Assembly: GCA_030704615.1 (NCBI GenBank) | Contig: CM060733.1 | Coordinates: 5,518,001-5,582,000 of the forward strand | Origin: Takakia lepidozioides | Taxonomy: Eukaryota > Plantae > Bryophyta | Direction: 5' to 3' | DNA: 64,000 nt | Shown here: in pieces, positions 11,387 to 64,000 of the stretch | Layout: every line of letters begins with the position of its first letter | Position numbering within the stretch: position 1 is the stretch's first letter | The notes under the pieces: generated by a model | The model's input: only the letters and a program-made list of their open reading frames with translations | Told to the model about the DNA's origin: nothing | The model's database searches: none | Program-made: the position numbers and the translations under genes

Positions 11387-11919
11387 GCATCGCTCAAGAG
11401 AAAAGCTCCGCTCTGTCCTTTTGTGTCCTTTATGATTGATGAATAGTATTGACTGTTCTCAATTGAATCTATACAAAAACTATCTAAAAGAATGAACATG
11501 TAACATACAAATTAGGGCCTCATGTTGCTCCGCACTACTAGCGACGACTTCTGAGAAGGACGTCTGGATGGATGGGCCATACTCGAGTTTATGAGAGAGA
11601 CCACGCATCATGCATCCTGCGAAAATCTCGGTCACGCAGTTTTAATTGGGGGGGGGGGGGGTGGTGGAGTGGTTTTCCATGGGTTGTCTTGGTATAACAA
11701 GTAGATTTGCACTATGATGAATCTGTATTTATTGATTATCCGTTGTGAGCATGTATTGGGACAAAATAGAGACAAATGAAGACTTTTGAAGAGGAGAAGA
11801 AGGATGGTCTTTATAAAATATGATGGCCCTTACATGGATATTTTGTTTGAAACGTTTACAGGTGTCTGATTTAAGCGCTACCTGCAAGCTATGCTTCTGC
11901 TCCAGTTCTCTTCGTTCGA

Positions 11920-12754: not shown

Positions 12755-15243
12755 TTATCAATGACAGACTAAGCAGAGTTCAGGTTTGAGAGTACAAGGA
12801 CTACACTTCACTCTGCCGTCGTACAGGGTCCAGACGAGGAAGTACGCGTCGCCTGGGTGGCCCATCGTCTCGAGGGCGTTGGCGTGATGTTGAAGGTTGT
12901 GAGAGTCGGAACGGCTGGTCTGGTAGTTGGGTAAGCGACAGCTCCAATGTATTCGCTTCCTGTGACTACGTGCTGCCAATACAAGATGCAAGAATGTTGG
13001 AGGTGTAGCTATATATACTGATGTGTGGTGCCCATCCCTCCTTAGCGTCACCTTGAAGCTAACTTGGCTGACATCATCGGTGTGACGTTTTATTGACGTG
13101 TGGCTCGAGGCTTAGCTGGATATCGTAGATGAAAATCTTGGACTTTGTCAGATGCATTGGCAAGGTAGGATGACGGTTCCCACGTTCGTTCCCTGATGTC
13201 GTAGCCTTTATAATGTACGAAATACTCAAGATGTTTATACTTGATGCGAGAGTCTAGGACTTCGTCGACTTTATACTTGATTTTTTGATTGACTTCAATC
13301 GGTGGAGGTGGTACAGAAACTCGCCCGGGGATACTTGAGTGATGATACAACGCTAATAATGAGACATGGAAGACTGGGTGGATGCGTATACTTCGTGGGA
13401 GTTCAAGCCGAAAACTGACCGGATTTATTTGACGAATAATTTTGAATGGTTCCAGGCGTTGATAAAATCTTCTTGATGGTCGCGAGGTTTGTATGTCCCG
13501 TCGAAGAAGCCATACACGATCTCCGACCTTGAATTGGGGTTGGAGTTGTCGATGTTGATCTGCATACTTCTTGTATTGTTTTTGAACTTTTACGAGGTGG
13601 AATGTAAGCTCCGTGTGAATCGTAGTAAGATGAATAGCAAGGTTTTCTACAGCAGGGCTTCCAACAGTCTGCATATGGAAAAGGTTTGCTCGAGGATGAT
13701 GACCATAATTGGAGAAAAATGGAGTTTGTTTGGTCGAAGAATGTATAGTGTTGTTGTAGGCAAACAATGATTGAATCGGTGGTCTTGGAAATTGGAAGGT
13801 CCGTAATAAAGTCCATAGACATGGACGACCATGGACCATTGAGAATGGGTAATGGTTGAAGAAGGCCGTAAGGTCGATGTCGTGGTCCCTTCGCTCTAGT
13901 ACACGTGTCGCAAGATTTTATAAATTATTTCACGAGTTTCCACATCTGCGGTCACCAATAGACCCTGGATATCAATTCCATTGTTTTGTTGAAGCCGAAA
14001 TGTCATGCAGCTGGAAGATCATGACATGTTTGAAGAATTCAAAATCGTATAGGTCCTGGAGGTATATAGAGAAGTCCCTTGAAGTAAAATAAGCCATCTT
14101 TGAATTCGAAATCGCTTGTAACATATGGGTGGTTTTGAGGTTGATTCAATTGACTTCTTCAGTGCTTCCTAAATCTTCTTTATGATCTCTGCATCGTCAT
14201 AGGTGGACATGAATAGCATATTCAATTGGAGATTTGCTGGTTTCATGATGATGGATTTTTGTTGGTCGAAAGCTGCGTCCCCTTATTTTGGCACAAAATG
14301 CGGTCGTCGAGAAAGAGCATCTGGTTTTCTTTGAAGATGTCCGGGGCGGTAGGTAATAACAAAATCAAACATTGCTAATGACATACTCCATCTCGCTTGA
14401 CGTCGATTCAAAACACAAGCATTCATAAAATACTCAAGGTTTTTGTGATCGGTGTAAACAGTAACCTGATGTTTAGCTCCCTCCAATAGATGACGTCATT
14501 CCTCAAAAGCATCGATAATCGCCAGAAATTCCTTGTCATGGATTTCATAATTTATATGTGCAACGGAAAATTTACGAGAACGAAAACCAACAGGGTGAAG
14601 TCGGCCATCTGTACAGTATTGAGAGAGTACAACGTCAAGTGCAAAGTCCGATGCATCTGCTTCCAAAAGAATGGTTTAGATGGGCCTACATGTACCAGAA
14701 TTGGAGTCATTGTAAATGCCTGCTTCAGCCTTTCAAATGTCTGATCAGCCTTCTCATCCCATACAAATTTGTCCTTTCCTATGATTCGTGTCAATGGTGC
14801 GGCAATTTTGGAGTTGTCATTGATGAAGATTTTATAGAAATTTACAAATCCCAGAAAACATTGTACATCTCGGACCGAAGTTGGTTTAATTCACTCGATG
14901 ATGGTTTGTATTTTCTTCTGATCCATAAAGACTCATTTGTCGGAAATAATGTAACCCAAAAATTTCGACTTTAGATTGGTGGAAAAGACATTTTTTCAAC
15001 TTGGCATGTAGTCTTCTTTCCCTCAATTTATCAGGGACAAGGCATACATGGCGACCATGTTCTTCTTCATTCTGTGAAAATATCAAAATGTCATCCAAAT
15101 AGATGACTACAAAGTCATCTAAAAATTCCTCGAAAGATATCATTCATCAATTGTTGAAAAATCGTTGGAGCATATGTAAGACCGAAAAGCATAACATCGA
15201 AATGTCCGTACCTTGTTTGAAAAGTTATTTTCCATTCGTCAGA
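12755..15243 (-). mobile_element. Degenerate Ty3/gypsy chromovirus (Tf2/Tcn1-like): RT, RNase H, integrase, chromodomain, 3' LTR
   Basis: [16 protein letters not shown] and VIYLDDILIFS; RNase [25 protein letters not shown]; integrase SMDFITDLP; IHPVFHVSLL then chromodomain YKVDEVLDSR..LEYFVHYKGY..TWEP. A putative LTR at ~12755-13088 carries a TATA box. There are many frameshifts. Confidence 0.9.
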
Positions 15244-18200
15244 GACACCACGATGACGGGAGGGCGGAGCGCCACTCTCCCACGCTATCCTCTACTAAAT
15301 AGTCTGCTAAACTAGCACCCTTAGGTTCTGCCATCCCCGCTCTTTTTTCCTTGTTATGTCTCTTTCTTTATAGCGGTGCCGCCACTTTAGCCCTATCTTC
15401 ACACATAGCCATGGCCGCCGCCATGCCCCCAGCTCTTGCGTTCTGTGCTGTTGTGCAGCATCCATTTTTATTTCCTTCACGTTCAGTCACCATTTGCTAC
15501 AACCTACTTCTTGCCCATCTTTTAAGCTTTTCACTAAGTCTTTTGCGTGGTTTTCAGCAGATGAGCCTCAGCACAACATACTCACGAAGTGTTTCCGCGC
15601 CGCCACACCTCACCTACGGGCCTTGCACACTCCAGCAAGCGGTCTCGTCCTTATGCTCCTTCTCATATCGACCTGCACTGCATCCACCAAACAAATCGAG
15701 TTGATATGTGCTACGCGTGCATTTCGCGCACCTTACTTCGGGAAGCTCCCCTTCAAGTCATAAGTAATCGCTTTGATACGCGCGCCTAACTCCCAAACTG
15801 GCCGCCGGGCCAACTCGGAGCTTCGGCTACTCACCGGGACATAGCGGTCCCCCTTTACTCCTCCACTTGACCCTCTCTCAATTTGGGCCAAGTGGAAATT
15901 CCCTTTGGTCGATGGCAGTCTGGAACAGCTCCCCACACCTTGGTCGTTTTCCGGCTCGCACGCTTACTCACTAGTTTTTGGTCACCAACAGGCTTGCACC
16001 GTTCTCGGGGTTACTACTCCCCATATATACTTATGTGACTGTCCGCGGGGGTTTCACAAACAACCATGTCATTTTATGGCGAACCACCACGAAAACCCTC
16101 GATTCCCGGTGATGAGTCGCGGTGAGTCTAGGCCGACCCACCACGGCCCCATTGGACCGTGATGAGTTCCAAGACTCCCCACGACTCCCACCACAAGGTT
16201 TCCACCCCCATGGTGAGTCCTATGTCACCCCCACTAAGTCCCACTAAGCTACCACCACCCCTTGTGGAACCACCCCCACCACAATCCGGTGTGCGGGGCT
16301 CCACCTAGTGAGTGCCTCCGCCTCCTTGAGTGCCTTGGGCACTCAAGGGTGCTTTAGCCCCCGTATCTATTGTTGTCACTGCCCCCACCATAGGGGCATC
16401 CCCTCTTGTGTCCCGACCCCCTGCCCTCAAGGCGAAGGGCCGCGACACACACCCCTACCAACAGGGAGTCGATGTCCTCATCGACTTGTCCATTTTGTAG
16501 AAACGAACATCCAAGTTGTGGCGTTCCACATCAAGGAGTTTGTTTCGACCGTACCATGGCGTCCCATGGCAAAGAACCAAACCCCCACTTGACTCAACTC
16601 TCCACTAGCTAGTTCGGCCGACTTCCTCCAAGTCCCGGCCAAGGGTGGAGCCTCTCAAGCTCTTCCCAGTGCACTCTTCTTGGCCCACTTCAAGGCCAAA
16701 GAACGATCCTCCCCGAGGATCGAATCGCCCTACTGCAACAACATTACTTGCGACCGCTCATGATGCCGCTTTTGGCATCACCTTGAGCAAGGGTTCCACC
16801 TTGAACCCTTTTTTACTAGGAAGATAACCTTGAACCAACCGTGCGCCTCAATCACTACAATTGGGTCAGCGTTGGAATGTTGGCATGAGGTACGGGAACA
16901 CGCCGAAGCCGCACTACAAATTCGTCCCGAGGCTACACGAATATAGTACGTGAGCGGAAACACGTAGCTTCCGCGTTAGCCCGCACTACAAGGCAACCCC
17001 CACGATAGCGCAGTTATAGTATGCGCACACGCCAGGTGCGCACTAGCACGTGAACTCCCAAAGAAGGCGCAAGTTTATTTGCCTCTTGGATGGGAGTCAC
17101 CCGATTTCGGCACTATTCAAACACACGATTAATCCAATTTACCTCTCCTACTTTTGTAAGCTAGCATGCATTCTACACACTAGCCAACCATACCATGCAT
17201 CACCATTCCAAACAAAATAGGATACACAACATTTGGAAACCATTTCATTTATAACAAAATTTGTACAATACAAGTTTTTGCAATCGGATTCCTGAGCTAG
17301 CTAAGTCGGGCTAAGCATGCATTTCCTCCCCCACGCTCCAAGGTTGATGTCCCCATCAACGCTTCTTCCGCTTTTGAGGTCGCCCTTCAAAAGCTGCAAC
17401 CGCCTCAGATGCGTTTCCCATTTCTGAGGCATGCACCCAAGTTGCCTCCACTTGATGATAGCCCTTCCATTTCACGAGATACTCCGTTTCTCGATTCTTG
17501 AACCTCCTCGACTTAAACATTGCCTCCACCTCGTACTCAGGTTCATTTTCATGATCCAACAGCACATGGTGGCAGACGCAACACGTGATGCCGATTCGGA
17601 CGCGATTCATCTTTGAAGTAAGGCTTCAAAAAGGAGACGTGGAATACTGGATGCACCTTGCTGTTTGACAACAACTCCAATTCATACACATCCTCATTCA
17701 TAACCTTTCGGATGCGAAAGGGTCCCGCATACGGAGGTACGAACTTCAGACTCACTTCCGGAGGTAGTCGAAAATTCTTGATGTTCAACCAGACCTCCGT
17801 GCCTGCCTCAAACTTAACTTCCCTCCGCTTCCGATTCGCCTGCCGTTCATACCGTTTCCTAGCTTTGGCTATGTTGTACTTTGCAAGCTTCAACAAACGA
17901 TCGTGTTCTTCCAGCACCGCTGCTGCTGCCGGTTCCTCAACGTCCTGGGCGGCCCAACTTGTCGGCACCAAAGGTGTTTTTCCATAGACCAATACAAAAA
18001 GGGAAAGTCCCGTTGCTTGTATTTTGTGTTATTATAACAGAACTCTGCCACATCCAAGTGCTCCACCTAGTCTGATTGGTCTGCCGACACATAATTCCAC
18101 AAGATTTGCTTTGACACCACGGAATTCACTCTTTCCGTATGGCCGTCCGTCGTAGGTCGGAAGGCGGTGCTCATCTTGAGCCTCGTCCCCAACTTCTTCT

Positions 18201-20448: not shown

Positions 20449-22700
20449 GGCGTGAGCGCGCGAGCGTACGCTCACGCAGGAGTGACGTGGCGTGAGCCTG
20501 CACACATGCTGACATGGCGTGAGCGTCATGTCAGCATGCTGATGTGGCGGTAAATGATGACGTGGCACTGTCAGTCATCTGTCACGTCAGCATTAACATG
20601 CGCCGCCTATAACCGAGGATGGTCCTATGACCGTGGAATTAATGCAGGGAATCTTGCCTAAATAGAATCAAGACGAGCGTTGAGGCCTACAATTGCAGCA
20701 TCCAACATTGTGCAATTACAAATGTTTGTTTCACTTTTACAATTACGAGGACGAAAAAATATCCTCACAAAGTGTGCGCCATAAAGGCTGCCACGGGAAG
20801 ACCTTCCTCCCTCCTCAAATAACAATGAGAGTTAGGATCATCTTCAAAAGATGATTGTAGTGCATAGTGACAGCAAGACATATAGACTTCGAACGGTGCA
20901 ATGACAAATGTGCACTACCTAAAAGTTGTCACTCAGAGCTCACTCCGTATAGTTGGAGGCCATATCATTGCACCGCCGACGAATTGATGTGAATTACACA
21001 TTTCAAATCATGGTCGTCCACATACCACATTGCATAGTTGATGCTACCCATGTGTTGTATCTCGCTGCAAAAGAGTATCGACCTCGTTGAAACTCATAGT
21101 GGCCTTGTGAATGAAGTTGTCACGTTTGGGATCGCAAACCATTCTCTTCAAAGATATGAATACAAATGTTTGCAGGGTATGAATTTACCTCTCTTGCCCA
21201 AACTGGTTGATATCATATTCACAAAATCAGGACATGTGCAATTGGGGAAATTGGAAACCGTGATGTCGTAGGTCATGTCATGAACAGCAGATGTGGAAGT
21301 GATGATTGTGAATACCCGACCATATCCTGGATCGGGTACTTCCGTGGTGCTTCCAACACGAGCTTGGAGCATTCTTGCGGACTCCACTTTGCCAAAGTGT
21401 TCAGCGGTTGGAGGGAAACGCCGAACGAGCTTTCCATCTCATTTGGTTGGCCACAAGTCAGGATTTGCCGGGGGGACCCGGGAGGACGCAGAAGTAGTAG
21501 CACGGAGTTGGGGTTGTCTCGCAAGGGAAAAACCTGCCTCCTCCAACATTTCAATCTCCTGAAAGCTCAGATGTGTTCCCACCTTCACGGGCCAAACGGT
21601 TGGAGGAGATGGCTTCATCACTACGGAAGGACGCACAGTTCCATGCACACATCTGGCACAATCATCTGCGCAGAACCAGAACTTGTGGTTCTTGGCTTCT
21701 GGTTGACCGTATGGACGCATCAAGCCCGTGAAAGTCGGAGTAGGAGTTCGGGCACCACCTCTGGATATAGATGAAGTGCACTTCTCGAAATTAGTTGCCC
21801 TGATCGCTGTACATTTCACACGAGACCCTACACTTGTGCGTTCTATGTGCCAAACGTGGTCGGGGCATGCGGACTCAAGCACATCAAGGGGGTTGTTTCT
21901 CTCCTGCACCATTTCAGTGGCACTGTTTGATGCTGGAGCTTGCCGTCGTGTTGGAGGTTCCTCCACAATGGAGGTTCCGGACATGGAGCTGTCATGCAGA
22001 GGAACACGAGGCTTCGAGAAGTTATCACGGTCTGCCCTGTGGGAATCTGAATCCGAACCAGGTGGAGTGTTCAATGTCCTCTTACAGGAGCCGAATCTCT
22101 CATACTCTCAAGTGATGCAGCTCCAGAAGAGAACCACCAGGCACGAATTGTCTGGAACAAAGTGTCCGCCTCCTTCATTGTTCTAGCATCTTTGTACTCT
22201 TTGCACAATTTACGGTGCTGAGTCTGCATCTCTGGTTTGATGTCCGACTTTGTATGTTTTTCCAGAGATTGTGTCCAATGGAATAGACATGTACGCTCTC
22301 TTCCTGGCATAGGCACTTTTGGGTCGCCCGATCCAAAGACAATACGAACAGCATTGAAATTTGCTTGAGCACTATCCGCCATGAAACCTGCGAAATTTGG
22401 AGATGGCAGCCCATGACACGTATCAGGGAATTCCACATGAGCTTCTGGGATTCTGTATCCTCGGATTGCATGTCACAAACTGCAATTGTCATAACTCGTT
22501 GGTACACTGGATCGTAGACATGACAAGCCATTGTCGTCCAATCCTTCACTCGTTTCACATGATCAAACATAAGAAAACGGTTCTGCAAGTCCCCAGTCTT
22601 ATGCATCCGCTTCACGAGGCTAACCCCACTGCCCTCCCCAACAGTCGACATTTTGAAAAGTCATCACATATTTGATGAGTGCAATGAATCTTTTTCGGCC
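20449..22700 (-). mobile_element. Mutator-like (MULE) transposase remnant with SWIM zinc finger and G-box-rich terminus
   Basis: MFDHVKRV..TIAVCDMQSED..FMADSAQANFNAV..CLFHW gives the MULE core with CxxH, and NCTCPDF...CKHLY is a SWIM finger. There are several frameshifts and a TGACGTGG-rich block at 20449-20691. Confidence 0.8.
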
Positions 22701-34794: not shown

Positions 34795-37700
34795 ACTGTA
34801 AAACATGCAATGGGCCATGAGATCATTTATTATATCCAAGAAAAGCCCAAAGGGCTTATGGACAAAGGAGAACAACAAGAGAGCACATGTCACTGCCAGG
34901 CACTTCTGGTCCACTGAGGTGAAGGTCTCAGCCTACGTGATGATGATGCAGTCATTGCCATTCCCTTGCTATGACATCGTTGACGGGAAAGTCCCCAGGG
35001 AAACCAGCCCTCCCAGTGCCGGTTGAGGGTTGGTCAATTGGGGGGTCTAATGCTGCGTGCATGGACATGGGCTCTTAGGACAATCTGGTACCAGTAATTG
35101 ATTGTCATTTCATGCACGTGTTTCTATTGACCTCGTACTAGACAGCATGCCAGCTCTGCTGCCATAGCAATGTGACCAAATGTGGCGCTGTGAGTCATGT
35201 AACCAGGGGCAGGTCCCAACTCTGGGGATTCGGTGTATTTCGTGTGTTGTCAAGAAGGTTTGTAGTGGCAGAATTCTGATGTATCTACAGACAGAATTTA
35301 CAGATGGAACATGGTTCATCTCTAAGTTTTACTGATTGCAGTGAAGTCACAGTTGGAGCCTCATCCAACAGTTGTGCTCGATGCTTTCCGAGGGAGTTGG
35401 GGGGCAGCAGCGACGGGTGCCACTTTGCATGCGTATACTTTGTGCTTCAGTCCAACTTTTAGTGACAGAAGCTATGTCTCCTTTGGGCTGTTTCTGGAGT
35501 CAAATTTAGGGGATGAAGCAGGAAGACTGGAGCTTGAACTCCAGCTCGCTCTCCGACGTCTTGTGAAAGCTCAGTTGTCACCTTCAGGGACGTACAAATT
35601 TGATGCCAATCAGGTATCTGCACAAGTGTATCTGTCTTGTTGTGCCTCTCCCGGAGTTTCTAGGATGGTCATAGGAGGTCCTCCAGAGAAGCCCACTGAA
35701 TGCTGATGTTGCTTGTAGGACTGTAATGCATAAAATGTTCTTCATAAGGCATCCAACAGATGGCCCATTGGTTAGGTATGCCTTAAAAGTGGGTGTGGGT
35801 CCAAAGCCACATAGGTGTATGTTGGATGTCACCATTATAGTGTTGGTCTGGTATTGAGTTTTGGGCATACCAGTGGGGTCCAAGTTTTGAAACTTAGATG
35901 ATTTGAAAACCAGCATATAAAATGGTATTTGATTATCCCAGTGTGCAACAGACCAGTCGAAGGAGCATTTTTTAACCTGGTATGAATATGAAATTGAAGG
36001 GAGGGGTGAAACTATTCGGGTATGATCCCGGATCTGATAGTCAGCAATAAGCAGGGAACCAAGCCACTTGAACTTTTTTAAGAATTTTCTAATTTTAATT
36101 ATTTTCTTAAGGGGCAAAGCCCAAACACTTTATCAAACCGCCACCTCAAGAAACACCCTTGAGGCACCTCAATTGAAATCCTGCATGAGGTGGAAACATT
36201 GAAGAGAGAAAACTGGTGGTGGAAGGACTGCAGCACTAACACACAAAACCCTTACCAGCCATTACACAGATTCATACCAACCACACTATGCAAATGTACA
36301 GCCCACATCTGGTATCGGGGCTGGTTTCTGGCAACTTCTACCAGGTGGTGCGCTAGGGTATACCGTGGGCAACCAAATTTGGTACCTGGTGTAGTACCAG
36401 TAGGGCAGGTTCTTTGATGATAACCGGGTTCGTAACCGGAAAAACCCTATATACCAGACCAACACTGGTGTCGACCTTCCAAACAGAAGGCAGTAATCCT
36501 TCGGGATGAAGTTACACCGTAATTTATGCTTGCTTTGGCAAGAGTCAACCTTTTCTTACCTTTCGTGTTTGATTGCTTGAACTTTGTAAGGTTGACTACA
36601 TTGCTCGGATCTGCCATATGATGGACTCGATGCATTCAGTCAACAAATCATGATGTTCTGCACTTGTGAGCCTTAGACACCAATGCCCCAAAAACAGTAG
36701 AATCTTATTGTAGTAATGTCGACTATATATGATACAGGGCTGTAGACATATTTGCTATTTCCTTATGGTGTGACAAGTAAGGGTCTTCTGTTTCTTCTTC
36801 CACAGGGCTTCTAGTGTTTCCTTACTCTCATCTTTCCCTGTCATTTGTCTATCATTAAGATTCAAGTCTGGAGTCTTAGGTCACATGAGTCATGACGTTC
36901 AGCACGTGTGAGTCCGCTGTGTCCTAATGTTTGCGGACCTAAATCATGGCAAGCTGAATCGATATGGGTGGAGTTATCTAGAGCCCTCCTAGATCTGAGG
37001 AGTTGTATATGCTTGTGTGACTTATGGTCTCCCTTTCAATATCTAAAGTAAATGGATTATTTCGAAATCCCTCAGTTTTTTTAGGACGAAAAGATCAATG
37101 GAGTTGTAGGTAAATGGGTAGATCGGTGGCATATCACATCTCTCAAATGATTTATGCTTGCAGCTAAGAGACGCGAAACTGTGTCAAGAAAGGCTTTTCA
37201 GCACAGTGTTGGACCACAATCCAGGCAGCAAAGTCACTGGAAACTGGAGCCCTAGCCAACTCTACCTTCTGTTACCCTTACAGCAGGACAACACAATTGA
37301 CTGGGAGTGCGTGAAAAATTTGATCTCAGATATGACACTGATGTCATGGAATGTGATTGGCTGCGATGAAGACAACACCAAGAATGGTGTGAAAATGGTT
37401 GAAAAGGTGGATTGTGGAGATTTTTGTGAACTCCCAGATGGATATCAGCATTTAAATTCATCTGTGAACAGTTTGATTTTGACAGCCCCACGTTCATTAA
37501 GCGACAGGGAAGATGCCCCTGGTAAAGACCTTGAAGGTGGCAATAGCACAACTATCTCTGAGGAAAGAACTGAAACTGAAAAACTTTCTGTGGCTGATTG
37601 TGTATCCAACATTCGTGAATTGAGATTGGCTGATGGTTGGGTACCTGTAGAATTTGTCCTGGACTCAGTGGTGGAAACTGTGCACAATGGCTATTTCTAT

Positions 37701-40700
37701 TGTGTGCGCGAAATGATTGGTCATATGAATGCAGATAGCCCCATGGCTGCCAAGGGCAAGTACAGCTGCTACACTCATTATTTCTTAGAGAAGTATGGAA
37801 GCATCTACTTCTTCGTCTTTGTGCAAGGTGGCTGATGACTAAGGATGCTTAGGAGTACTTATAAACTTCTAATGCTACGCCCAGTAATAATCCCTACATT
37901 CCATGCTAGATTATCACAACCGAGAAAGTAGTAGGTTGAAGGGTCTATAGTATAATCTAATGTTAGGTCTTTACCTGTACTGGAAAGCTCCAGCAGCTTT
38001 GCCCCATTACTAAACTGGTTTAATTGTTCTTGGTCAGACTAAATGTCAAACATCCAAAGTTGGCTGAATTTTTGCAAAAGCATGGCATATTCTGATAATT
38101 TTCTTCAATCTTTCCAAGTTGGGACTTTAAGACTCTGCCTATGTTGTTAGGAATCCCAAAGCTGCTAATCAATAGGTTGGGGTCTTTTTTCTCAATGAAT
38201 CAGGCACTCGAGAAAGCTAGTGCATACGAAGCAGCCAATGTTGAAGGCTAAGCGGTTGATTGAAGTGCGTAACCTTCAACGGACGACAAACCCTCAAGGT
38301 GTGTCTCTTTCAGTCTTTCAATGGCCACAAGGCTACGGCAAACAACGTCTTATGAGTACAATCTTTCAGTCTTTCCGACCCCCCTTTCACTGTTTTGCTC
38401 CATTGTTTTTCCATTTCTTATACTCCGTCATCCTCACTGCTCCCATCTAACTTCTTGCAGCTCCCACTTGCCAGTTTACAATCTGAGGTCTTAGAAACGT
38501 AGGCATCACTTTCACCCATTTATTGACTGAGAGGTCTTCCTCTGCAGTTGCTGAAGAGCTGAAGGCAGAGGCGATGGTGGAGCTTCCTCCAGAGTTATGT
38601 CGGATAAGAGTGCGAGGACTATCATGTGCACTGGCAAATGGAGTGTCGTTGCTGCCATCATTCATGCATCACCTTGAAGGCTTTCTGCTCGCCATTCAAC
38701 TCCGGCAAACCCTTACAGATGCTTTCCCTGAGGCAGCCAAAGTGTCTGCCAATACGGTACTTTGTCTCTATGCCTGTTATGGAGTCTGTCATTTAAGTTC
38801 CTTGTTCACTCCTGTATCATTGCAAGAACCAGTTCACCAGAGCATATACAACAGCTCGAATTTGAGGAGAATGAAACCGTACTTAGGAGAGGGGATGAGT
38901 TTTTCCCCTCAAGTTTTTGAAGCAGATTACATGTCATTTTCTGGGCTCTGATGTAAGGTTGAGACACCATCGTCGCGGAGGTTACCCATTTTCGGACTCA
39001 ATATGTCAGTCCTGTGGTGGGTCCTGTATGTCAAGCCATGCAATGCTCTGCATTTGCAAATTAGAAATCTCCATTGCTCACAGATTTCCGAAGAATCTCT
39101 TTCCAGGTTAGAGGCCCTGAGTTGCAACAGTTGCTTTGCAACCAAAGAAGTAGGAACTCATGTGAGAGTTTTGTAGTGGTTCAGGAATGATGCCTATAAT
39201 TGAAATTCCCTGATGAGTATATGTTTCTAAATGAGAGCCTTTTTGTAAGCCTCACACATTTGAAATCTTCTTAAAAGCAAATAACTAATTATTTAAAAGG
39301 ATCTCTTGTTACAGAGTAGGCCACATGATTGTACTTCCATGGTGACTAGCATCAGTTACTCTCATGGCACCTTCACTGTCCATCTTATTCCCCAGAACGT
39401 TTTGAGTTCATTTGAGGGTGGCACAGAGTGTCTCAGCAAGATCAGGCCTCAGCGAGGCCTGATAACTTACTGCATTTTCATGGATACTGGCTTACATTGG
39501 ATACAGATGCTGGAAGCCATCACTACGGGGCAGTGCCTGGAGAGCTTTAGCCTAGAAGGCCTGGAGCTTCTGGGGGATGCTTTTCTGGAGTATGCAGTGA
39601 GTGTGCACCTTTTCCTTGTGCACAATGATTTGAATGAGGGCGAGTTATCAAAGCGGCGTATAGCTATAATCTGCAATGCCACCTTGCAAAAGCTTGGCAA
39701 GGAGCAGGGCCTGGCGGTAGGTGCTTCACCCTCCAGAACTCCCGACATGTACCCATGTTTATGATGTAGATCACCCTTTAGGTGCAAACAGTTGTCTACG
39801 TGTCATTCATATGGCTGCATCAAAGTTTGTCGTTTTCTGTCGCTGTCTTGTTCTAACCCATGTCACTTCTTGCTGTGCAGTCTTATATCCGTGATGCTCA
39901 GTTCTGCCCAAGTGATTGGTGTGCACCAGGTCGACCTCACGGACTCTCTTCAGCAGAGGGTGAGGAGGCATGTGAAAGCAAAGATGGCATCCTTCACCCA
40001 AAAAGCAATATCAAGAAGTGCAGTAAGAAGGAGGGTTGGTTGCAAGGAAAAACAATTGCAGACGTTGTAGAGTCTCTGATAGGTAAGGTGCATGTGCACC
40101 GAATGTCTCAAAAGTTATTGATTATTTGTAGGCTACTGCAGGGTACAATGGACGATCATGTTATTACACTGTCTTTTAGTGCTGGCAAGCTTGGTAACTG
40201 CCTGAACTCCCAACCAGAAACTAGTCAGTGCATATCACAAGCTGATACTGGTGTGTAAGTACCCATGCCATCCACATATTCATGAAAACTAGATACATGA
40301 CCTTGCTGTTTTGATGGATGTGAGACTGATTTTTTCAACATGCCAACAGGAGCACATTACATTGAGGGAGGTTCCACTGCAGCTCTCTCCTTCATGGACT
40401 GGGTTGGCTGTAAAGTGGCAGTGGACCATAATGTAGTAAAACGTATGGATTGGCAGCCTGGACTTCTGGGTGATACTAAGGTGGTTGAGTTGGAGAAGCT
40501 GCTGAGTTATAGCTTCCAAAACAAAGGCCTGCTAGAGGAGGCCCTAACACACGCCTCATGTACAGAGTCCGCAGGAGCATGCTACCAGGTACTTTGTTGG
40601 CTGTCAAAAGTTACTAGTGATGTGCCTAGTAGCTATAAAACCACCAGGGACATTTCCCCAATTTTTATTCCCCTCAAAGGTGTATAAAAAGGCGGTGTGG

Positions 40701-53570: not shown

Positions 53571-55514
53571 TCAAAATGCCCAGCTATACTCGTTCCCGGC
53601 ATGACGGAAGCGAGGAACGTCTTTGAGGACGATATCCACCTTGAAGAGGGAGCCACACATCTGGCCTTGGCTATCCACGCGTGGCACTGGCGTCACTGGG
53701 CTCATGGGGTGCTCAAAACTGCGCAGACCTCCTGAGCTGGAGAAGAAGCACCCTGAATGCACAGAGACGTCTAATGGTCAGAAAAGGCCCCACAGAGCGT
53801 AACTACTCGAACAACCGCTAAATAGGAGAGTGGGGCGTACATGTTAGTCTGAATTCTTTTCTGGCTTGGGAAAGTATTCTCCTATAGACTAGTAAGGGTC
53901 AAAACTGCAGAAGTTAGTCTCCTCCTTTGTTCGAGTCCTTTAGGAAGACGCCCAATAATTGGTAGATCCAGGTGGCCCATCCCCCAAAAGGGAGTAGTAG
54001 CCGTCAGGTGAAGTGGGCTCTAAGTTACTAGGCAGGAGTCTTCTCTCTCTGCAGATAAGAAAAATAATCCACCAGATCTCCAGAGTTATAGACAGTCAAA
54101 TATCCGGAGCCAGCATCATCATGTAACTCCACCTGCAGCTCATTAAGGGTTTGACAGCTGAACAGCATTCCGACAGACAACAACACGTATATCTGCATAG
54201 GGATGGTATTACCATGAGGGAAGGGAGCAATTGACTGGCCACATCCTTTCAGGGAATCAGCTTCATCTGAGAACAAGATGGAACCGTCTGCAGCTATGCC
54301 CCAAAACAAGGATACCTTTCCATGACAGTCCTGCACATCAACATATTTTAACCTTCAGCGGCGCTAATTAGTTCCGGTCATCATTGGTGCACTGACACAA
54401 TAAAAATAATACAAAATGTTCAATTATGGATCCCGATCCTCATCCCGAACATGGATTGACACAAAACTTCTACCGAGATCTGTGTCCCTTCAGTAGAAGT
54501 AAATGTCGTGAAAATCAAGCAGGGTTACCACACCTGTTCAGATTGGATCATGCGTAACGCACACAGCAGAAAATCGTACTGAAATTGCATACGAAGGACC
54601 TTTAAACACTACTTGTCACCCTTCTGACTCGGATCGGTGGTAGGAATCTCTACTCCTTTCAACCCAGCCACTATAACAGGACTGCTAACATATCAGGACA
54701 TGTATAAGAAAGACAACGACATCCTCCAAGACATCAACAAGCAGGACGACTTCACAGCTGTTATGACAAGTAACTGCGGGAGGATACTCACAGACGCAAC
54801 AAGCAACTTGCGTTCTTTGCTGTCGTAGAGAACAAACGAAAATGCCCCACTCAGATCTCCAATAACTTGGTCAGCTGAGTAAGGACCTCGATCACGAAGC
54901 ACTCTGTACATCTCAGTTACTAGCATCACCTCACTCACAGTCTTCGAAAGACCGTATCGCTGCCTAAGCTGAGGCAAATTCTCGAGTATTCCGACAAACA
55001 TGCAGAATATGTCGTCCACCACTGCGAAAGTTCTGCGAGAATCACACAGTGTGCGTATCCACTCAAGAAACAACCGCAACATTTTCCAAACTTTTTCACA
55101 TTGAAGAAATCCATCCCACTAAAAAAGAGTGCCAAATGTTATCAGTGTCCGATCTCTTATACAAGAACACTGCGGAAGTCAGTTTAAGCTGCTCTGGACA
55201 TCAAGAAAGGTACAGAAGTCAGTCCCTGATAGAAACACGCGAAAGCTACAGACACGTTCCAGCAGCAGTAGAAAACAGAGGAATCATCAGATTCGGAAAA
55301 CATCTCAATACCTTGGGCGCAGAAGAGCCTGTTTTGCATGAGAACAAGCCATGCCACTACCGCCATTCAATTGCATACATATCGCGTCAGGACGGGATGC
55401 CTTATAAGAGCTGAGGATCTCCATGCCGCTCCTCCGTGGCACAGGGCTGCTGCTACTCGGTGCGCTCAGTTCCGCCGGAGGACATGCAACCGACTTGTCA
55501 AACACAGCCAACAT
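53571..55514 (-). CDS. TSJT1: Stem-specific protein TSJT1-like / aluminium-induced protein with YGL and LRDR motifs (DUF3700, Ntn-hydrolase-like)
   Basis: Four GT-AG exons: 55514-55312, 55032-54792, 54329-54213, 53752-53571. They encode MLAVFDKSVACPPAEL, QRYGLSK, YRVLRDRGPY, LFWGIAADG, APFPHGCFFSSSGGLRSFEHP and VPRVDSQGQMCG. Confidence 0.93.
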
Positions 55515-56084
55515 CTTGCCCCGTTCTTTTTCCCAAAAGCAGCTTGACGATCGATTAACCTTTTCTCAGCCGGTGTGACAGCTTTCCCGACCAAGGCTCG
55601 GTTCCTTACAAGGACACAACAGACAGATCTTTCCACCCACGAATACGCCCGGAAACTGCGAACATAGACCACAACAGCAAATTGCAAACACAGACACAAC
55701 ACAGACAAGACCAAAACTGTAAACCAACAGAAGCTTGACCAGAATTCACTCCTTTGAGAAGAGATAGCGACACACGAGAACGATTAGTAGGCCGACGCAT
55801 TCACACAGCGGCTGGGGACCGCTGGTCGCACGCAATACCTCTGGGACAACTCTTCCTTACCCACTCATCATACTGGCGACGACCGTCAGCTTCCTGTCAG
55901 GCAAGACCCGGTCGCCCAGTCGGAGTGACCGATTCAACACCGGCTGCAGGCGGTCAAGTGTGGATGTGATGGCGGGGCTGACGACAAACGCACGGCGACG
56001 GCACCTGGGCTCCATCTCACCAGCGCTGATGTGGCAGCATCTTAGTGACGGCTAGATCCGCCCCTCAGAACAACTCGCTACTAC

Positions 56085-56672: not shown

Positions 56673-58010
56673 CTGTCGCTCCGACTACCGCAGTGGGAGA
56701 GATGGGAGAGAGAGAAGGCAGAAGAGGGAGAGAAGGTATGAGGGTGGTCGAGAGGCTTGGGAGTCTGTGGACGAGGACCACGTAGAAGAAGATGATGAAA
56801 TTGTTTCGAGGTAGTCCTTCTATCATCGAAACTGTCAGCACGACATTTCGCTTATAGTATGAAGATGGTCTTTGACATGCTTCATTAGTACATTCGATGA
56901 TCATGTTTGGATGAGGGTGAGATAATGTGCAATTATGACAAAGTCGAACAGTGCTAAGGTGGAGAAAGAGAACTCACGCAATTTGCACTGGAAACGGAAT
57001 TGACAGTGTTTGCATTATGCATCACGGAATGTAACACTTCATTTGCGTTGAGTTGAGAGCACTTGTTTGGCCAAATGTGCCCAGTTTCTGCAAAAACCTG
57101 ATCGTTTATCGGAGAGAATATTTGGAGTAGAACCATAAAGCGCATGAGGAGTACGACTTTTGTCTCCATATGGGAACTAGACTGCAGACCCCCCCATTCT
57201 GATCTGGTAGCATCGCCCTGCATTGGTAACTACAATCGTTCTTGGATGTATACCCAACTCCAGCTCTTGATTTAACAACAACTGAGTGTCGTGTTTCCAC
57301 TCCGTGATGTCATCAGAACTGGAGGATTTCGCAGGTTACAGTGAATCGTCGTATATCTGCCAGGCGGAATGTATCCGCACACTTGAATAGTTCCAAGTTT
57401 TGTGTCGGATTACTGCCTTCGGTCCCACCACCAAGATGTCGAGAGGATTTCGATGTCTTGGGATTCAACCAGTGAAGCAACCCCAACTTTCAAACTTAGA
57501 TTGGAATTAGTATCCACTCGCGCTGTTCTAAGGAAATTCAAGAGAAGTAGAAGCTAGAACGCAAGCCAGCCTTTCTTCGTCATGCAAGGAGGTGAGAACA
57601 GTCCACCAGCCTTCCAAATGGATCAAATGCATAAACATGGTGGATATAGTGGGAAATCTCCACGCCATATACCAGCAGCTGGCAAGAACTGGGTTCCTGT
57701 CAGCTTGTTTATTGATGCAGTGGGATTACAACAAAGACCACAGCTCATTTCTTTCTTGAATGATCAAGCTGGAGAGAATCATGGCTCACACAATTCCACT
57801 CCATTCCACCAGATACGTCTAGACCTATTCCACACCCAGAGTCTGCTCTTGAAATTCCTTAGTGATGGTGGTACATGAGGGTCTGTTTGTGAAATTGCAT
57901 ACATACATCTTATTACGTGTGTGGACTGTGGAACTGCAAAACTGAAACTGGAAGCCATTTCAGAATATGGAGTAGCACCAACTCCCTTTGCTAGTAAGGT
58001 ACAAAGTACA

Positions 58011-58535
58011 TGTCATGCGCATACATATCGCTACACAACTACATCGCTGTCCAAACCACACCACGCATATATGCACAATACAATAGTCTGCCACAATGGA
58101 TAGAATACTAAAAACACATAGTTGACACAAGAAACATGAAAACCAACACCATCACTCTTTAACATAATAGTCGAGCCAGGGGCACCCCAAGCCATGGGGA
58201 CTCCACCCCACAACAACCTATTCTCCCATCATAAGCACACTCAGATTCTACATGGTGAAGGAGCTCGGTCGTGCAAGCTCAACTCGAGAGAGATGAACCG
58301 CACGACTGACGCTCTCGTGAAGATAAGACGGTTCAGGTGTCAAACTAAACTTGACACCTGACTTAACACTTGAACTAAATCCAAGTGTTAAATACAAATA
58401 ACTAGCTTTATTCTAGTTAGTTTCACACTGTGTTTATTTAACTTGACAGCTGTCGTGCGCATACATATCGCTACACAACTACATCACTGTCCAAACCACA
58501 CCACGCATATATGCACAATAAAGTAGTCTGCCACA
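58011..58535 (-). mobile_element. 3' LTR region of the DNMT-carrying element, bounded by two ~85-bp direct repeats
   Basis: The PPT AGGGGGGCGAT precedes TGTGGCAG at 58535 on the minus strand. 58011-58095 closely repeats 58451-58535. Confidence 0.75.
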
Positions 58536-58795
58536 ATCGCCCCCCTAGCTGGTGGATAGGTCCCTCTAACTCCAGATAGCTACAAGATGTAATAGCAACA
58601 GCCGTACTAAGTCCTCTATCACTGTCCCTATTGTACTCAAACTCTATAGACCAAGAGGCCGGGTACAAGAGTAGCCCCATCGTTAGTCGTCGTCTTGCAA
58701 TCTGTGAACTTGAGCCAGGATCTCGTGTGTTCAAGGTCTTCTAGTAGCTTGGCCTTGCGTTTATTGTTAGCCTTCCATGGTTGTATCCACTCCCA

Positions 58796-58939
58796 CTATC
58801 CAATGCAATGTGGACATAACCAATCCCCATCCGGAACCATCTCAAGAGGTGGAGTCAAGCATCCCATATGCCAACCTCTAGAGCATCGATCACACACCAG
58901 CATGGTGGCTGCCCCTCTAGCAGACCCACACAACATGCA
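58796..58939 (-). CDS. PHD finger at the integrase C-terminus (one frameshift from pol)
   Basis: CMLCGSARGAATMLVCDRCSRGWHMGCLTPPLEMVPDGDWLCPHC is a C4HC3 PHD pattern with the WxC motif. Confidence 0.9.
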   Translation of the reverse strand, partial: CMLCGSARGAATMLVCDRCSRGWHMGCLTPPLEMVPDGDWLCPHCIG

Positions 58940-59082
58940 CTCAAACTTGCAGATACCACTGCCAGGTTTGGGTCAATCCTGCCATCGACATTCGGAAGGT
59001 GACATGGCGCACAATTACGCACATGGTCCTTCCAAATTATGCCATCCCGACCCTCCAAGATCAAGACGCCTGAGGGCAAGAC

Positions 59083-61803
59083 CTATCGAACCATCAAAAT
59101 AACACGTCCTGCAATCACATCCAAGGTCGTACGAGCAGTCTGCTGCAGATAGACATAGTCACCAGGGTTGAATCTCCGAACCCCAGGACGATAGCCCCCA
59201 CCACGTATGGTAGCATACCTCAACGTATCACGATGTTGGGCAATGACAAGGTTCTCGAAAGCCATGGGCATGACCTTCTTGAACAACTCTGCACGCTGAT
59301 CACATGCACGTGCCCAAACGTCTGGATCGTCAAGGTTAAGAACTGTAGCAGCTTCTCTGCGAATGGATGTAGGCAAATCCGGCTCTCGGCCAAAGAGAAG
59401 AAAATATGGTGAGAAGGAGGCAAGTGATGCTTGCTTGTTGAACCTGTAGCCCATGGCTAACCAGGGTAACTGAAGGTCCCAATCTCCTAGGTGTACTTTC
59501 TGCAAGCCATACTTGCACAAACCCCTCTTTACTGTCTGAACAACTCTCTCTGCCAAGCCATCAGCCTCAAGATGATCCCGAGAAGTGGTGCGGTGGTCTA
59601 TCAAGGCCTTGTCACACAAAGCCTGAAACTCCCCCAAGAACTCTCTCCCTTGGTCCGTGAGTACCTCAGCTGGAACACCGAATCGGCTAAGTATACAATC
59701 CAAGAATGCATACGCGGCTCCATCACTAGCCTTATTAGGCAATGGAACCAACTCGATCCACTTGGAGAAGTGTTCCACCATCACCAACACGTACTTGTTG
59801 TGGCGCATGGTCAGTGGCAACGGCCCTGCGAAGTCAAGACTCCACCTGTAGCCCAATCCCATGATCGGAAGAGGGTGCAATTGTGGAGTAGGGGCGTTGA
59901 ATGAAGCACGCACCCTGTCACACACCATGCACCTAGCCACAAATTGTTGCACCTCTGTGTGCATACCACGCCATCAATACTGCCCCTGCAGTAGACTATG
60001 AGTGCGTCGCACCCCAAAATGCCCCAACTCCTCATGGGCATGCCGCACTAACCGTGCCCGCTGTGTTGGGTGAGGCACAATCCTCACTCGACCATCCTCC
60101 CACACTCGGAGCAGGTGTGTCCCCTCCCACTTGAACCTCTTGGCTCATTGTAGGATCCGATCCCTCTCCTTGGCAGTCACAGTGGCTGCCGTATCTCCAG
60201 TGCGGAGATAGTCCAACACAACTGAATCCTCATGTATACCTTTGGCGCCACCTTGCTCATTGCTGGCCTCAGGGTCCTCAGACACTTGATCTACAGTCAT
60301 CCCTGTTGCAGGTCCAACCTGGCCTTCCGCTGCCAAGATACACAGAAATGCAGATGCATGCCATCCGGGCACCATCTCCTCATCCGTCTCACCATGCCAC
60401 CGAGCTCCAGTGTCATCCTTCTGGCTCGTGCATGGATTGCGACTCAACCCATCTGCATTGCGATTGACCAAACCTGGTCGATGCACAACCTGAAAGTCAT
60501 ACTCTTGAAGGATGAGTGCCCACCGTGCAAGCTTCCCCGTAAGCTTGTCTGACTCCATCAACCACTTGAGTGGTTGGTGATCCGTGACAAGGGTGAAGAG
60601 ATTGTTGTATAGATAGCACCTGAAGTGTGCCACGGCCCACACTGCAACTAAGCATTCTCCCTCATATGAGCTATACTTAGACTCGGCAGCATTGTTCGAA
60701 TGGCTAGCATAAGCCACTACGAACTCTCTTCCTTCATCATCCACCTGTGTGAGCACCGCTCCAAGCCCCAGTATGCTCCAATCCGTATGCAGCTGAAAAA
60801 GACGCCCCCTGATAGGTCGTCTCAAGATGGGCGCCGAGGTCAACCTCGCCTTGAGCTCTTGAAAAGCTTGTTCTTGCTCATCTTTCCACTGCCACTCCTG
60901 GTCCACCTTGGTCAGCTTGGTTAGAGCCTTTGCAATGGCACTAAATCCCTTAACAAACCGTCTATAATAGTTTGCTAACCCCATGAAAGCTCGAACTCGG
61001 CTCACATCCGTGGGGCGTGGAATCTGTGCAATGGACTCTACCTTAGTCTGCTGTACCCCCAATCCTCCAGGATATATCATGTGACCCAGATACTCAATCT
61101 GGTTGTGGAAAAACTTGCACTTCCCCGGATGTAACTTCAATCTGTGCGCCCTCAAGCGCTCAAATATCACCTGAAGGTGTCTCTCATGCTCCTCCACAGT
61201 AGCACTAAAGATGATGATGTCATCTATGTAGCACCGAGCAAACTCCACCCCTGCTAGAATCCTGTCCATGACTCTCTGAAACTCTGCCGAAGCGTTTTTA
61301 AGCCCAAATGGTAAGAACCGCCACTAGTATAGGCAATCCTTCCCGTGCTCATTGATCCCCCAGAATATCGTCTTCTGCTTATCCGCATCCTTGATCGGCA
61401 ACTGGTGATATCCGGATCGTAAATCCAAAGTGCTAAAGACCTTGGCATGCCCAATGGCATCAAAGATCTCATCTGGTGTCGGCATAGCATACCTATCGGA
61501 CTTGGTCTGACGATTTACATGTCGGTAATCACCGCACATACGTCTCTCCGTCCAATTGCCATAGACATCCTTCTTGGCTGGCATCACTGTGGCTGAAGCA
61601 TACTCTCCCCCAGATAGCTCCACCAAACCAGCCTCCCAAAGGTCATGAGTTCTCATCTGAATCAAGGACCTCTCCATGTCACTGTATCTATAGGGTCTCC
61701 GAAAGATTGGCGTGTCAGTAGCCAATTCAATGCGAATCTCTTGACCCTTCAGTGCTCCTAAGTCCTTCAAACTGAAGGCAAAGCAGTTCCTGTAAGCCCT
61801 CAA
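59083..61803 (-). pseudogene. RT-RNase H-integrase part of pol, with in-frame nonsense codons
   Basis: ORFs starting at 61803, 61269 and 59964 share one frame and are separated by single stops: TAG 61324, TGA 60145, TGA ~59975. Confidence 0.92.
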
Positions 61804-62229
61804 GAACCGTCGTATACGTCGTCTCTCTCCTCCGGTGACTATAGGTCCAACATCAGGCTCCCAGTTGTCCTCCGTGACTGCAACCTTGAGTCCAGCAGGC
61901 TTAGTGGTAGAAGACGCGTCCCGTGGTTGCTATGCTGCAACCTCTTAAGCAGTGACCACTGCCTCCTCTGTCAGTGACAATGTCTCATCCTGCCCCATCA
62001 TCCCATTCTTGAGGACCTCCTCAATCCGAGAAAAATCCCCAACCTGATCCATCACCGCCGCCTTGGCTGCCAACTGAACCTCGAGCACCTCCCACGTGTG
62101 CCATGGATGCGGCCTGCACCTCGTGGTCCTCACATGCTCGCCCCCACTCGCTGCCTGTACCGTCTCGGTAGGCAGGGAGACCATGAAGGGAAGTGTACCC
62201 CGTACTCTGCGCTGCTCAGCCATAGCCAA

Positions 62230-63180
62230 GCTGATAATCCAGGTCAAGCAATTGAGATCCATTGCTTGCCCCAACACCTGACGACGCAATGCCTCAGAAA
62301 GAGATGACACCGCCGTGGTACCAGTGGTAAAACCAATCGCCCGCTCGCGCTCGTCGGCATTGGGCTCCACTAATTGTTGCAACTGGCTATCCCACAAGAG
62401 GCCAGGTCCACCATCCCAAAAAGCATGGGATCCTGGGAAGCTGAGCAGTGTAGGTAATGCTGCTTGTGGTTGACCCACCCTGTTGACCACTGCCAAAGGC
62501 AAACGGTCATCGTGTCTCACACGTTGAGACTGCCTCCCTGTGTCCAAAATGCTATCCACTGTGAGGTGTGCTGGCCGCTGCACCCCATCAAATGCACGCT
62601 TGAGCAGTGCGGGTGGCATCAAGTTAGTCCACCATAGCCGTGGACGATGAGCCCATGACCCCACTGCAGCTGCATCCAGCAACAATGCTGACCCAAGCCA
62701 CGACCGGACTTGATGCACACTGGCCATCACCCTGGCTCGAGAATCACCCATCAGTGGCACATTCTCCAAGATGTATACTGGAGATGCAGCTTGATGAAGC
62801 TGCAAGTGGCGCAAAACCCGCACCATCTCCCAAAACAGACCCGTCCTCGAGTCTCGCAATCCATTGTCATGCCCGGCTGATGAATGCCCTTGGCAGGGCC
62901 AACCTGCCACTACCAGATCAATGGAGCCAACCTGTTCCAAATCCTGCGCCCCCAGCAACGAAATGTCTGCTGGCAAGGCTTGTTGGTATCCACGAACTGT
63001 AGACACTGACAACAAAACATGGTACTGCTGTACCAACTGAGCAAGATGGCGCAGTGAGACGCGTCGTGCAGTCTCATCCCTCTCTACATACAGGTAACGT
63101 CGAACTCGTACACTTGCCTGCAGCACTGCAGCCAATCCAGTGCTGATCCCGCCAAACAAGTCCAGAAGGCATATGCCTTC
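62230..63180 (-). CDS. C5 cytosine DNA methyltransferase domain (DNMT3/DRM-like) within the retrotransposon Pol
   Basis: Motifs occur in canonical order: I LLDLFGGIS, II YVERD, III ADI, IV AGWPCQGHS, V LRDSRTGLF, VI YILENV, VIII HRPRLWWTN, IX ERERAIGF, X RRQVLGQAMD. The domain is uninterrupted within ORF 61945-63987. Confidence 0.92.
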
Positions 63181-64000
63181 ATCCGGGCACTGCCACACAA
63201 GAGGTGTGGTGTCCAATGGCGACAACTGAGGTGGTCCTGGTGCAATCACCACACTCTCCTCTTCTCCTGACGGTACGAAGGCCTCTACCCAAGCTTGTTG
63301 CACCCGTCCATCAGCAGCCTGCTGCAAATCTTTACTCGTACCCCACAATGGAGTGTGAGCAACCATGGCAGGCAACTCCGCCGTACCATGCATGTCATCC
63401 TGCTCTGCTGGAGGTGACACATCCTCTGCATGGGCATTGCCTTCCAGCAACTCTCCAGGCCAACTAACTGCAGCTGTAAAGGCAGCTAGTGTTGGCATCT
63501 TGCCCCGCTGGGCAGCCGCAATACCCCCAATGAATGTCACAGGGAGTTGTGCACGACGACCATCCCCTGACTGCCATCCAAGCCTGTAGGATGCTGACTC
63601 CTCCCAAAAGTCCAGGGTGAAGCCCATGGGATATAACACTGCCCCACAAATGAGGACATCGTAAGATACCGCGTCTGTCACAATGGCCTTGGCTCGCATC
63701 ACTGAGCCATCTATAGGATGATCCGGCTGCAGTGTAATGGCCAACTCACGCTGTGTCATGCCCCGAGCCTGCTCTGATCCTCCCAGAGATGTCTGTATCT
63801 GGAAAGGACAAGGCTCCATATCCGCCTCTATGAGGCCCAAACCTGCAATAGCAGCTCTGCCCAACATCAGTGGCTGAGCTCCCGAGTCCAACAAGACCCG
63901 CAGTGGTCGGTATTTCTTGCCTGCCGGTCCACTCAAAGAGAAAATGCCATCCTGGTTGTCTAACAAGACAACTCCAGGTGTCACCATGGCGCGCTCAAAG

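Follow-up and report, generated by a model that had tools for sequence, protein, structure and literature searches.

The role of the DNA methyltransferases (DNMTs) of retrotransposons has been open since 2018, and they have been studied only in algae that are hard to handle. In Klebsormidium nitens, the gypsy element KnitGypsy-Dnmt3 (de Mendoza et al. 2018) carries an intronless, unrearranged Dnmt3-related domain in Pol (PMC5890265). Its catalytic residues are conserved, it is under purifying selection, and according to the legend of Fig. 4c the element has DIRS-type repeats (PMC5890265). The DNMT3 domains of the SymbioDIRS elements of Symbiodinium methylate CG de novo (PMC5890265). Streptophyte Gypsy-DNMT3 elements are cited in papers of 2025-26. 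Here we analyse a stretch of 64,000 nucleotides of Takakia lepidozioides (Bryophyta; GCA_030704615.1, contig CM060733.1, positions 5,518,001 to 5,582,000), called the window below, one end of which is occupied by a Ty3/gypsy element with a DNMT inside Pol.

We consider it probable (about 0.6) that this element is a degenerate member of a high-copy Ty3/gypsy family in which Gag, protease (PR) and DNMT form a first open reading frame (ORF1). ORF1 would close at a stop codon that is partly read through, and the DNMT would be supplied in Gag-like amounts and methylate the element's complementary DNA (cDNA).

Organization of the element

A single minus-strand frame from 63999 to 58846 encodes protease, C5-methyltransferase, reverse transcriptase (RT), RNase H (RH) and integrase (IN) in that order. 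Pfam searches of the window ORFs gave DNA_methylase (E 2.3e-12), RVT_1 (1.9e-20), RT_RNaseH (7.6e-33), rve (7.3e-14) and Integrase_H2C2 (1.5e-5). The order PR-RT-RH-IN with gypsy-type domains is that of Ty3/gypsy elements. No tyrosine recombinase was matched among the window ORFs scanned with Pfam; rve and H2C2 were matched instead, and the element thus differs from the DIRS/Ngaro type. The protease of the window copy had no Pfam match and was assigned by its LLDSG motif and by comparison with relatives, whose corresponding region is 29-55% identical and in some cases matches Asp_protease_2. The features of the element are as follows (window positions, listed in the direction of the element).

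63580..63984, minus strand: aspartic protease (LLDSG), from the frame translation and the Asp_protease_2 matches of relatives; gag lies upstream, past the window end
62206..63189, minus strand: DNMT3-like C5 cytosine methyltransferase, free of stops, motifs FGG, PCQ, ENV, RxR and X intact (Pfam, PDB sequence search, model)
61945..61947, minus strand: TAA private to the window copy, i.e. decay; the run contigs differ
61924..61932, minus strand: in-frame TAG CAA CCA, conserved in runs, loci and L020; predicted readthrough site closing ORF1 (Gag-PR-DNMT)
61816..61919, minus strand: weakly supported candidate for a long-range RNA stem downstream of the stop; arms at about 61919-61909 and 61831-61816
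61075..61854, minus strand: RT (YIDD), with one stop at 61326 (Pfam, frame)
60490..60819, minus strand: RNase H (Pfam)
59086..60070, minus strand: integrase (HHCC, DDE core), stops 59976 and 59085, with stop 60147 just upstream (Pfam)
58805..58939, minus strand: PHD finger, frameshifted relative to pol here (Pfam, 2.3e-12)
58538..58550, minus strand: polypurine tract (PPT)
58451..58537, minus strand: repeat B, copy 1, terminal CACGACA
58442..58457, minus strand: internal end-to-end palindrome CACGACA-GC-TGTCAAG (right tip plus left tip), predicted integrase site, with the same junction in other loci
58098..58448, minus strand: repeat A, 3' copy, its position matching A of six complete relatives; the 5' copy lies outside the window
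58011..58097, minus strand: repeat B, copy 2, 95% identical to copy 1; element end CATGACA at 58011, where depth drops (58010)

An earlier interpretation made from the letters of the window alone, the sequence-only reading, had placed a C5-methyltransferase between protease and RT and had assigned the ORFs starting at 63987, 61803, 61269, 59964 and 59079 to one frame; both claims were borne out. It had overlooked the PHD finger. The frameshift at about 58939, which puts this domain out of the pol frame, is absent from other copies, and in L020, L030 and L046 (loci from the metagenome scan described below) the PHD finger is in frame.

Seven stops interrupt the frame: 61947 TAA, 61932 TAG, 61326 TAG, 60147 TGA, 59976 TGA, 59085 TAG and 58857 TGA. 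The first two are five codons apart, and both lie between DNMT and RT. None of the stops 61326, 60147 and 59976 is among the 40 of 675 variant rows listed; we attribute these three to decay, since the frames of L020 and L030 are open at those places. The window copy is decayed and unable to make RT or integrase. Its gag and 5' repeat lie beyond the window end.

Contigs of X1, the run that matches the flank unchanged, pile up on 58010-64000 at a summed depth of 0.4-1.4e6, compared with 59-87 on the flank; summed contig depth is not a copy number. Depth over the DNMT is similar to that over RT. The family is very abundant, and the DNMT is a regular part of it.

A conserved stop between methyltransferase and reverse transcriptase

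The junction TAG CAA CCA at 61932-61924 corresponds to UAG-CAR-YYA, the readthrough consensus of tobacco mosaic virus (TMV) (PMC2754532, PMC3159437). In Arabidopsis, readthrough of the TMV type amounts to 6-10% (PMC2754532). CAR-YYA occurs at 8 of the 1726 in-frame codon pairs of the window pol.

Four runs (X1, X5, X7, X8) were compared over 61850-62060 with a threshold of 2%. They showed 31 variants at 30 places in these 211 nt, and none at 61924-61935, where X1 has a summed depth of 0.8-0.9e6; X5, X7 and X8 (a second organism) show none there either. Single contigs of X7 and X8 cross the stop site, and X7, which may be an RNA run but is not read as a sign of expression, has 25 differences in 204 nt. 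The TAA at 61947, only 15 nt away, is replaced by another letter in 365551 of 366279 summed X1 depth, and likewise in X5, X7 and X8.

A metagenome scan led to the same picture. It retained 80 of 310 confirmed relatives, 58 of which span the junction. Close loci (DNMT at least 47% identical, n=31) carried a stop followed by CAR and YYN at the homologous site in 27 cases, compared with 0 of 27 distant loci (DNMT 35-42% identical). The stop was TAG in 19 and TAA in 8 of these 27; it was followed by an exact CAR-YYA in 4, by CAA-CCC in 22 and by CAA-CCT in one. As to the remaining four close loci, a stop is kept in L035 and L059, the linker is absent from L022, and L025 reads a sense codon at this position. 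The distant locus L080 has a decayed look-alike of the signal.

In two relatives the stop stands out against an otherwise open frame. L020 has a single frame of 2417 codons from Gag to PHD, the sole internal stop of which is TAG CAG TTA at this site, and L030 is open from DNMT to PHD apart from TAG CAA TCA. At the protein level, many relatives stop 70-160 residues past the DNMT, and the homologous place is the end of one Calypogeia protein and of five from Marchantia, each 1278-1281 aa long in the latter. Seven stop-bearing RTs form one clade among open-frame elements (99 in the Shimodaira-Hasegawa-like approximate likelihood ratio test, SH-aLRT); the stop was therefore likely gained once. By all these comparisons, the TAG at 61932 is a feature of the family and the clade and not decay.

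A structured RNA 3' of the stop is weakly indicated. RNAalifold found no consensus structure after the stop in 10 loci, and the fold z-scores were +0.63 for the window, -0.92 for L014 and -2.8 to -4.35 for L020, L030 and L058. The two arms of the possible stem pair at -20.0 and -18.6 kcal/mol within their own subfamily versus -12.9 and -8.8 when swapped; these arms were chosen after the folds had been seen, the comparison comprises a single switch, from one subfamily to another, and neither L021 nor L058 does better than shuffles.

The methyltransferase domain

The DNMT motifs FGG, PCQ, ENV, RxR and LGQAMD are all intact and in unrearranged I-X order. The best PDB sequence match is DNMT3A (4e-10), followed by DNMT3B/C, DRM (1e-4) and HhaI (5e-4); the class placement is this ranking of solved structures by best match. 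A model built from a 74-row alignment reached a pLDDT (predicted local distance difference test) of 94, versus 33 for a single-sequence fold, and matches the folds of DNMT3A and DNMT3B (Foldseek 3.5e-19; template modelling score 0.70/0.85, 0.70 by query).

Between lineages the domain is under purifying selection, as judged from the ratio of non-synonymous to synonymous substitution rates (dN/dS). This ratio was 0.09 for the window and L015, 0.12 for L020 and L030, and 0.14 for L020 and L021, with RT values of 0.04-0.08 in these three pairs. It was 0.25 for the window and L030 and 0.44-0.81 for decayed moss-type copies; several distant pairs were saturated. The DNMT is found in full frame in 50 related loci, and its catalytic Cys is present in all 50.

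A nested insertion of the DNMT was also considered and is rejected, because depth over the DNMT is like that over RT and relatives have the domain at the same position. The earlier claim that it is an integral part of the element holds, on these grounds as well as on the full-frame loci and the purifying selection.

Split repeats and possible self-priming

Downstream of the PPT (58550-58538) the element continues with B (87 nt), GC, A (351 nt) and again B, and at 58010 depth drops from about 4e5 to under 90. Six complete relatives of 8.6-9.7 kb have the layout A…B-A-B, and L017 and L025 have A…B. Two full equal long terminal repeats (LTRs) were found at the ends of none of these eight, and the window 3' end is B-A-B. 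Elements start with TGTCATG and end with CA(C/T)GACA, and a target site duplication (TSD) of 4 bp flanks 5 of the 8 relatives in which both ends are present. The TSD, the TG…CA tips and the PPT are those of gypsy elements. At the B-A junction, two bases link the right tip to the left tip, which makes a CA-gc-TG palindrome, in 11 of 19 loci with a PHD finger.

No tRNA-type primer motif was found directly after the 5' A in 11 loci. Instead, the 5' A is followed by 15 nt that form the complement of A position 163-167. The mismatches number no more than 2 in 11 of 19 loci and no more than 4 in 16 of 19, and the sequence of these 15 nt differs between the two clades. This complementarity is a candidate signature of self-priming. 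Self-priming is known for Tf1/Sushi and Tcn1 elements (PMC6317226).

In both clades, the A2|B2 seam coincides with the edge of A at the primer site and with the edge of B at the PPT, which is what the joining of two linear cDNA ends gives. In L060 (14773-14802) about 149 nt of B are missing from the A|B seam, a loss to be expected from imprecise end-joining. Eight loci (L005, L009, L017, L025, L029, L041, L070, L076) have single-B right ends with no second A-B, and L017 combines A…B with a 4-bp TSD. Single-B ends could stem either from integration of a one-repeat circle or from B-B recombination.

Relatives and neighbouring genes

Over the region, relatives were found in Marchantia polymorpha (61-70%), Calypogeia fissa (71%), Sphagnum (49-57%) and Closterium (39%), and in the green algae Haematococcus, Chromochloris and Hariotina (32-41%). 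The sequence-only reading named dinoflagellates and charophyte algae as sources of methyltransferase-carrying retrotransposons (Klebsormidium nitens is such a case); the Marchantia, Calypogeia and Sphagnum relatives are from land plants. In a quick DNMT tree, in which several protein rows carry default labels, the window falls into a clade of 10 rows (SH-aLRT 99) with Marchantia, Calypogeia and moss-associated loci. Among named protein matches, its DNMT is closest to liverwort elements; no protein named for Klebsormidium was among the 65 + 62 matches.

A second architecture, RT-RH-DNMT-IN-PHD, with the DNMT between RNase H and integrase, was seen in proteins P0023-P0063. Its 16 rows form one clade in the DNMT tree (SH-aLRT 99) that includes proteins named for Chromochloris and Haematococcus. 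Therefore the DNMT changed its place in pol at least once, and it is present in chlorophytes. A distant moss-associated clade (L041-L079) has PR-DNMT-RT in one open frame and the catalytic motif WECQ. It shares the split ends, the palindrome and the self-priming position with the window clade, while its A and B sequences differ. A viral or phage origin was set aside: 30 IMG/VR loci match motifs only, with 25-48% over short stretches.

Other parts of the window contain host genes and gypsy remnants. An intron-containing Dicer-like host gene with RNase III and dsRBD exons (Pfam) lies at 37122-42140 (plus strand). A DUF3700 host gene is found at 54693-55565 (minus strand), about 2.5 kb from the 3' end of the element; its exon shares 72-79% identity with 11 proteins, of which those with a named source belong to mosses. 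The gypsy remnants are a Tf2-like SH3 domain plus chromodomain at 13090-13917 and a second Tf2-like integrase tail at 17549-18028 (both minus strand). Further long open frames are located at 326-1810, 5363-6031, 7713-11458 and 21439-22660 (minus strand) and at 45268-46233 (plus strand). They include a coiled-coil-like frame with a weak RING match and an NIF phosphatase-like one; several (613, 424, 321, 222 and 161 aa) had no Pfam match.

Possible life cycle and alternatives

In the mechanism that we propose, ORF1 would comprise Gag, PR and DNMT and end at UAG-CAA-CCA, with the enzyme made one-to-one with Gag. Readthrough of this stop, which we regard as likely from the conservation of the site, would supply RT-RH-IN-PHD, at 6-10% if the TMV rates in Arabidopsis apply. 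The DNMT would be packaged in Gag-like amounts and methylate the new cDNA inside the particle. This seems its most likely use because the DNMT is fused to Gag and protease and conserved, and because SymbioDIRS DNMT3 domains methylate CG; for release by the protease together with methylation of cDNA in the particle we see an even chance.

Self-primed reverse transcription would then give linear cDNA with B-gc-A at both ends, the tips of which are not integrase sites. The ends would be joined before integrase cuts the internal CA-gc-TG palindrome, giving A…B-A-B or, if the circle has one repeat, A…B. This scheme is about as probable as its negation. PHD fingers may read histone H3, and here the PHD finger follows integrase. 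Guidance of the element to a histone H3 state by this domain is a tentative suggestion. The complete chain, in which a widespread lineage of land-plant gypsy elements with a leaky stop would load each particle with equal numbers of DNMT molecules and capsid subunits, methylate the cDNA ahead of insertion and integrate through the internal palindrome after end-joining, is unlikely to hold in every link.

Several observations weigh against these proposals. After the stop, 23 of the 27 stop-bearing loci have CAA-CCC or CAA-CCT rather than CAR-YYA, directly followed by an in-frame ATG, and 8 of 27 carry TAA. The nine invariant bases alone are not significant, given 30 variable places in 211 nt. 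The loci are redundant; they represent about three subfamilies, with several insertions seen twice. In Tca2, the gag stop is not read through in yeast, and bypass can have other causes (PMC2194720). The loci were found with patterns containing PCQ, so that motif conservation is partly by construction. The element shows no extra CpG loss (observed/expected 0.54, versus 0.52 in the rest of the window), which is uninformative either way. The KnitGypsy-Dnmt3 domain did not methylate DNA in yeast, a result termed inconclusive there (PMC5890265). Finally, although a joined cDNA contains the palindrome twice in equal form, none of 27 left ends showed the mirror form A-B-A…B.

These points bear on different alternatives. 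The single polyprotein with all stops due to decay (PR-DNMT-RT-RH-IN in the sequence-only reading, Gag-PR-DNMT-RT-RH-IN-PHD in full) fits the 27 distant loci, in which the stop signal is missing and the linker mostly open, the single 2358-aa protein P0021 and the sense codon of L025. Against it stand the same stop in four runs, its presence in 27 of 31 close loci and its position as the sole internal stop of L020, which make it highly improbable here. As far as these sequences go, the polyprotein holds for a deeper ancestor but not for the window lineage. The stop could also be real while RT-IN is reached by reinitiation at a near AUG, by splicing over the stop or from an internal promoter, with the DNMT still in ORF1. 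The ATG directly after CAA CCC is typical of the moss-type subfamily, the Marchantia and Sphagnum gene models P0003, P0004 and P0022 (automatic predictions) skip the junction, and Tca2 is a precedent (PMC2194720). However, the window, L020, L021, L030 and L058 have no ATG there, the first in-frame Met of the window lies inside the RT-homologous region, and both the frame and CAR-YY persist across subfamilies that have different sequence around them. We therefore judge such routes clearly less likely than readthrough.

Even if readthrough holds, the DNMT may act elsewhere, on host chromatin after its release, on RNA, or as a DNA-binding component of the particle without catalytic function. A CpG deficit no greater than background, the inactivity of the Klebsormidium domain in yeast (PMC5890265) and a Gag-level supply that would exceed the apparent need of one 9-kb cDNA are in line with this; the retained catalytic residues and DNMT3 fold and the de novo CG methylation by SymbioDIRS domains (PMC5890265) are not, and we consider it rather unlikely. 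For the ends, the choice is closer. An inherited A…B-A-B layout like that of PAT/Ngaro, with RNA that extends from A into the terminal B, both tips templated by the internal B-A junction and single-B ends arising by B-B recombination, accounts for the missing mirror forms and equals the DIRS-type layout named in PMC5890265. Yet the A2|B2 seam lies at primer-site and PPT edges in both clades and varies between copies (the B deletion of L060), and the self-priming signature comes right after the 5' A. Inheritance thus has a chance somewhat short of even.

If readthrough at TMV-like rates applies, the position of the stop sets the enzyme dose: as Gag, roughly ten times RT or integrase. A DNMT at Gag level would argue for a structural or saturating role in the particle and against an incidental passenger. 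Because of their split ends, these elements would escape programs that search for LTR elements by a pair of equal LTRs; the ends also suggest a mode of integration that is unusual for a DDE integrase. If the complete chain is true, the element would be a retrotransposon that determines its own epigenetic state and inserts in the manner of a circle-forming insertion sequence. The relatives in Marchantia polymorpha, annotated as hypothetical proteins ending at the conserved stop, make the question testable in a genetic model.

Comparison with known systems

The literature searched (outside subscription papers, Repbase, figures and bioRxiv supplements) contained no description of a land-plant Gypsy-DNMT3 or of its stop, PHD finger, priming or palindrome. 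In the text of PMC5890265, "PHD" and "Marchantia" do not occur, although its Fig. 4c could still show a PHD finger. KnitGypsy-Dnmt3 and the Takakia element share a Dnmt3-like domain in a gypsy element together with DIRS-type repeats. In KnitGypsy-Dnmt3, however, the DNMT is in one ORF with RT (PMC5890265), whereas here a conserved stop separates them and one ORF is found only in the distant clade. Moreover, that element is from an alga and those described here are from land plants.

Avian sarcoma-leukosis virus, with protease at the Gag level and recoding before RT, by frameshift, resembles the layout found here. In SIRE1, Tca2 and murine leukaemia virus (MuLV) the stop is located at gag/pol or pol/env (PMC2194720), and not, as here, after protease and methyltransferase. 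The sites of TMV type have in common with this one the UAG-CAR-YYA upstream of a polymerase and possibly an extended 3' stem, as in alphaviruses (PMC2754532, PMC3159437). The EpiLTRs/DAM-LTRs are likewise LTR elements with a methyltransferase and a histone reader, but their DNMT is sister to DNMT4 and is combined with a chromodomain and Dam, in contrast to the DNMT3-like domain with PHD finger here (bioRxiv 10.64898/2026.05.21.726589).

As to the ends, PAT/Ngaro DIRS elements have the same A…B-A-B layout with an internal B-A junction (PMC5890265). They use a tyrosine recombinase, whereas the present element combines a DDE integrase with TG…CA tips and, in its relatives, target duplications of 4 bp. 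The integrase of foamy virus cleaves the palindrome at the LTR-LTR junction of 2-LTR circles, which yields processed ends (PMC1180852). In that case the cDNA tips make up the junction (PMC1180852), while in the family described here the palindrome is encoded within the repeat.

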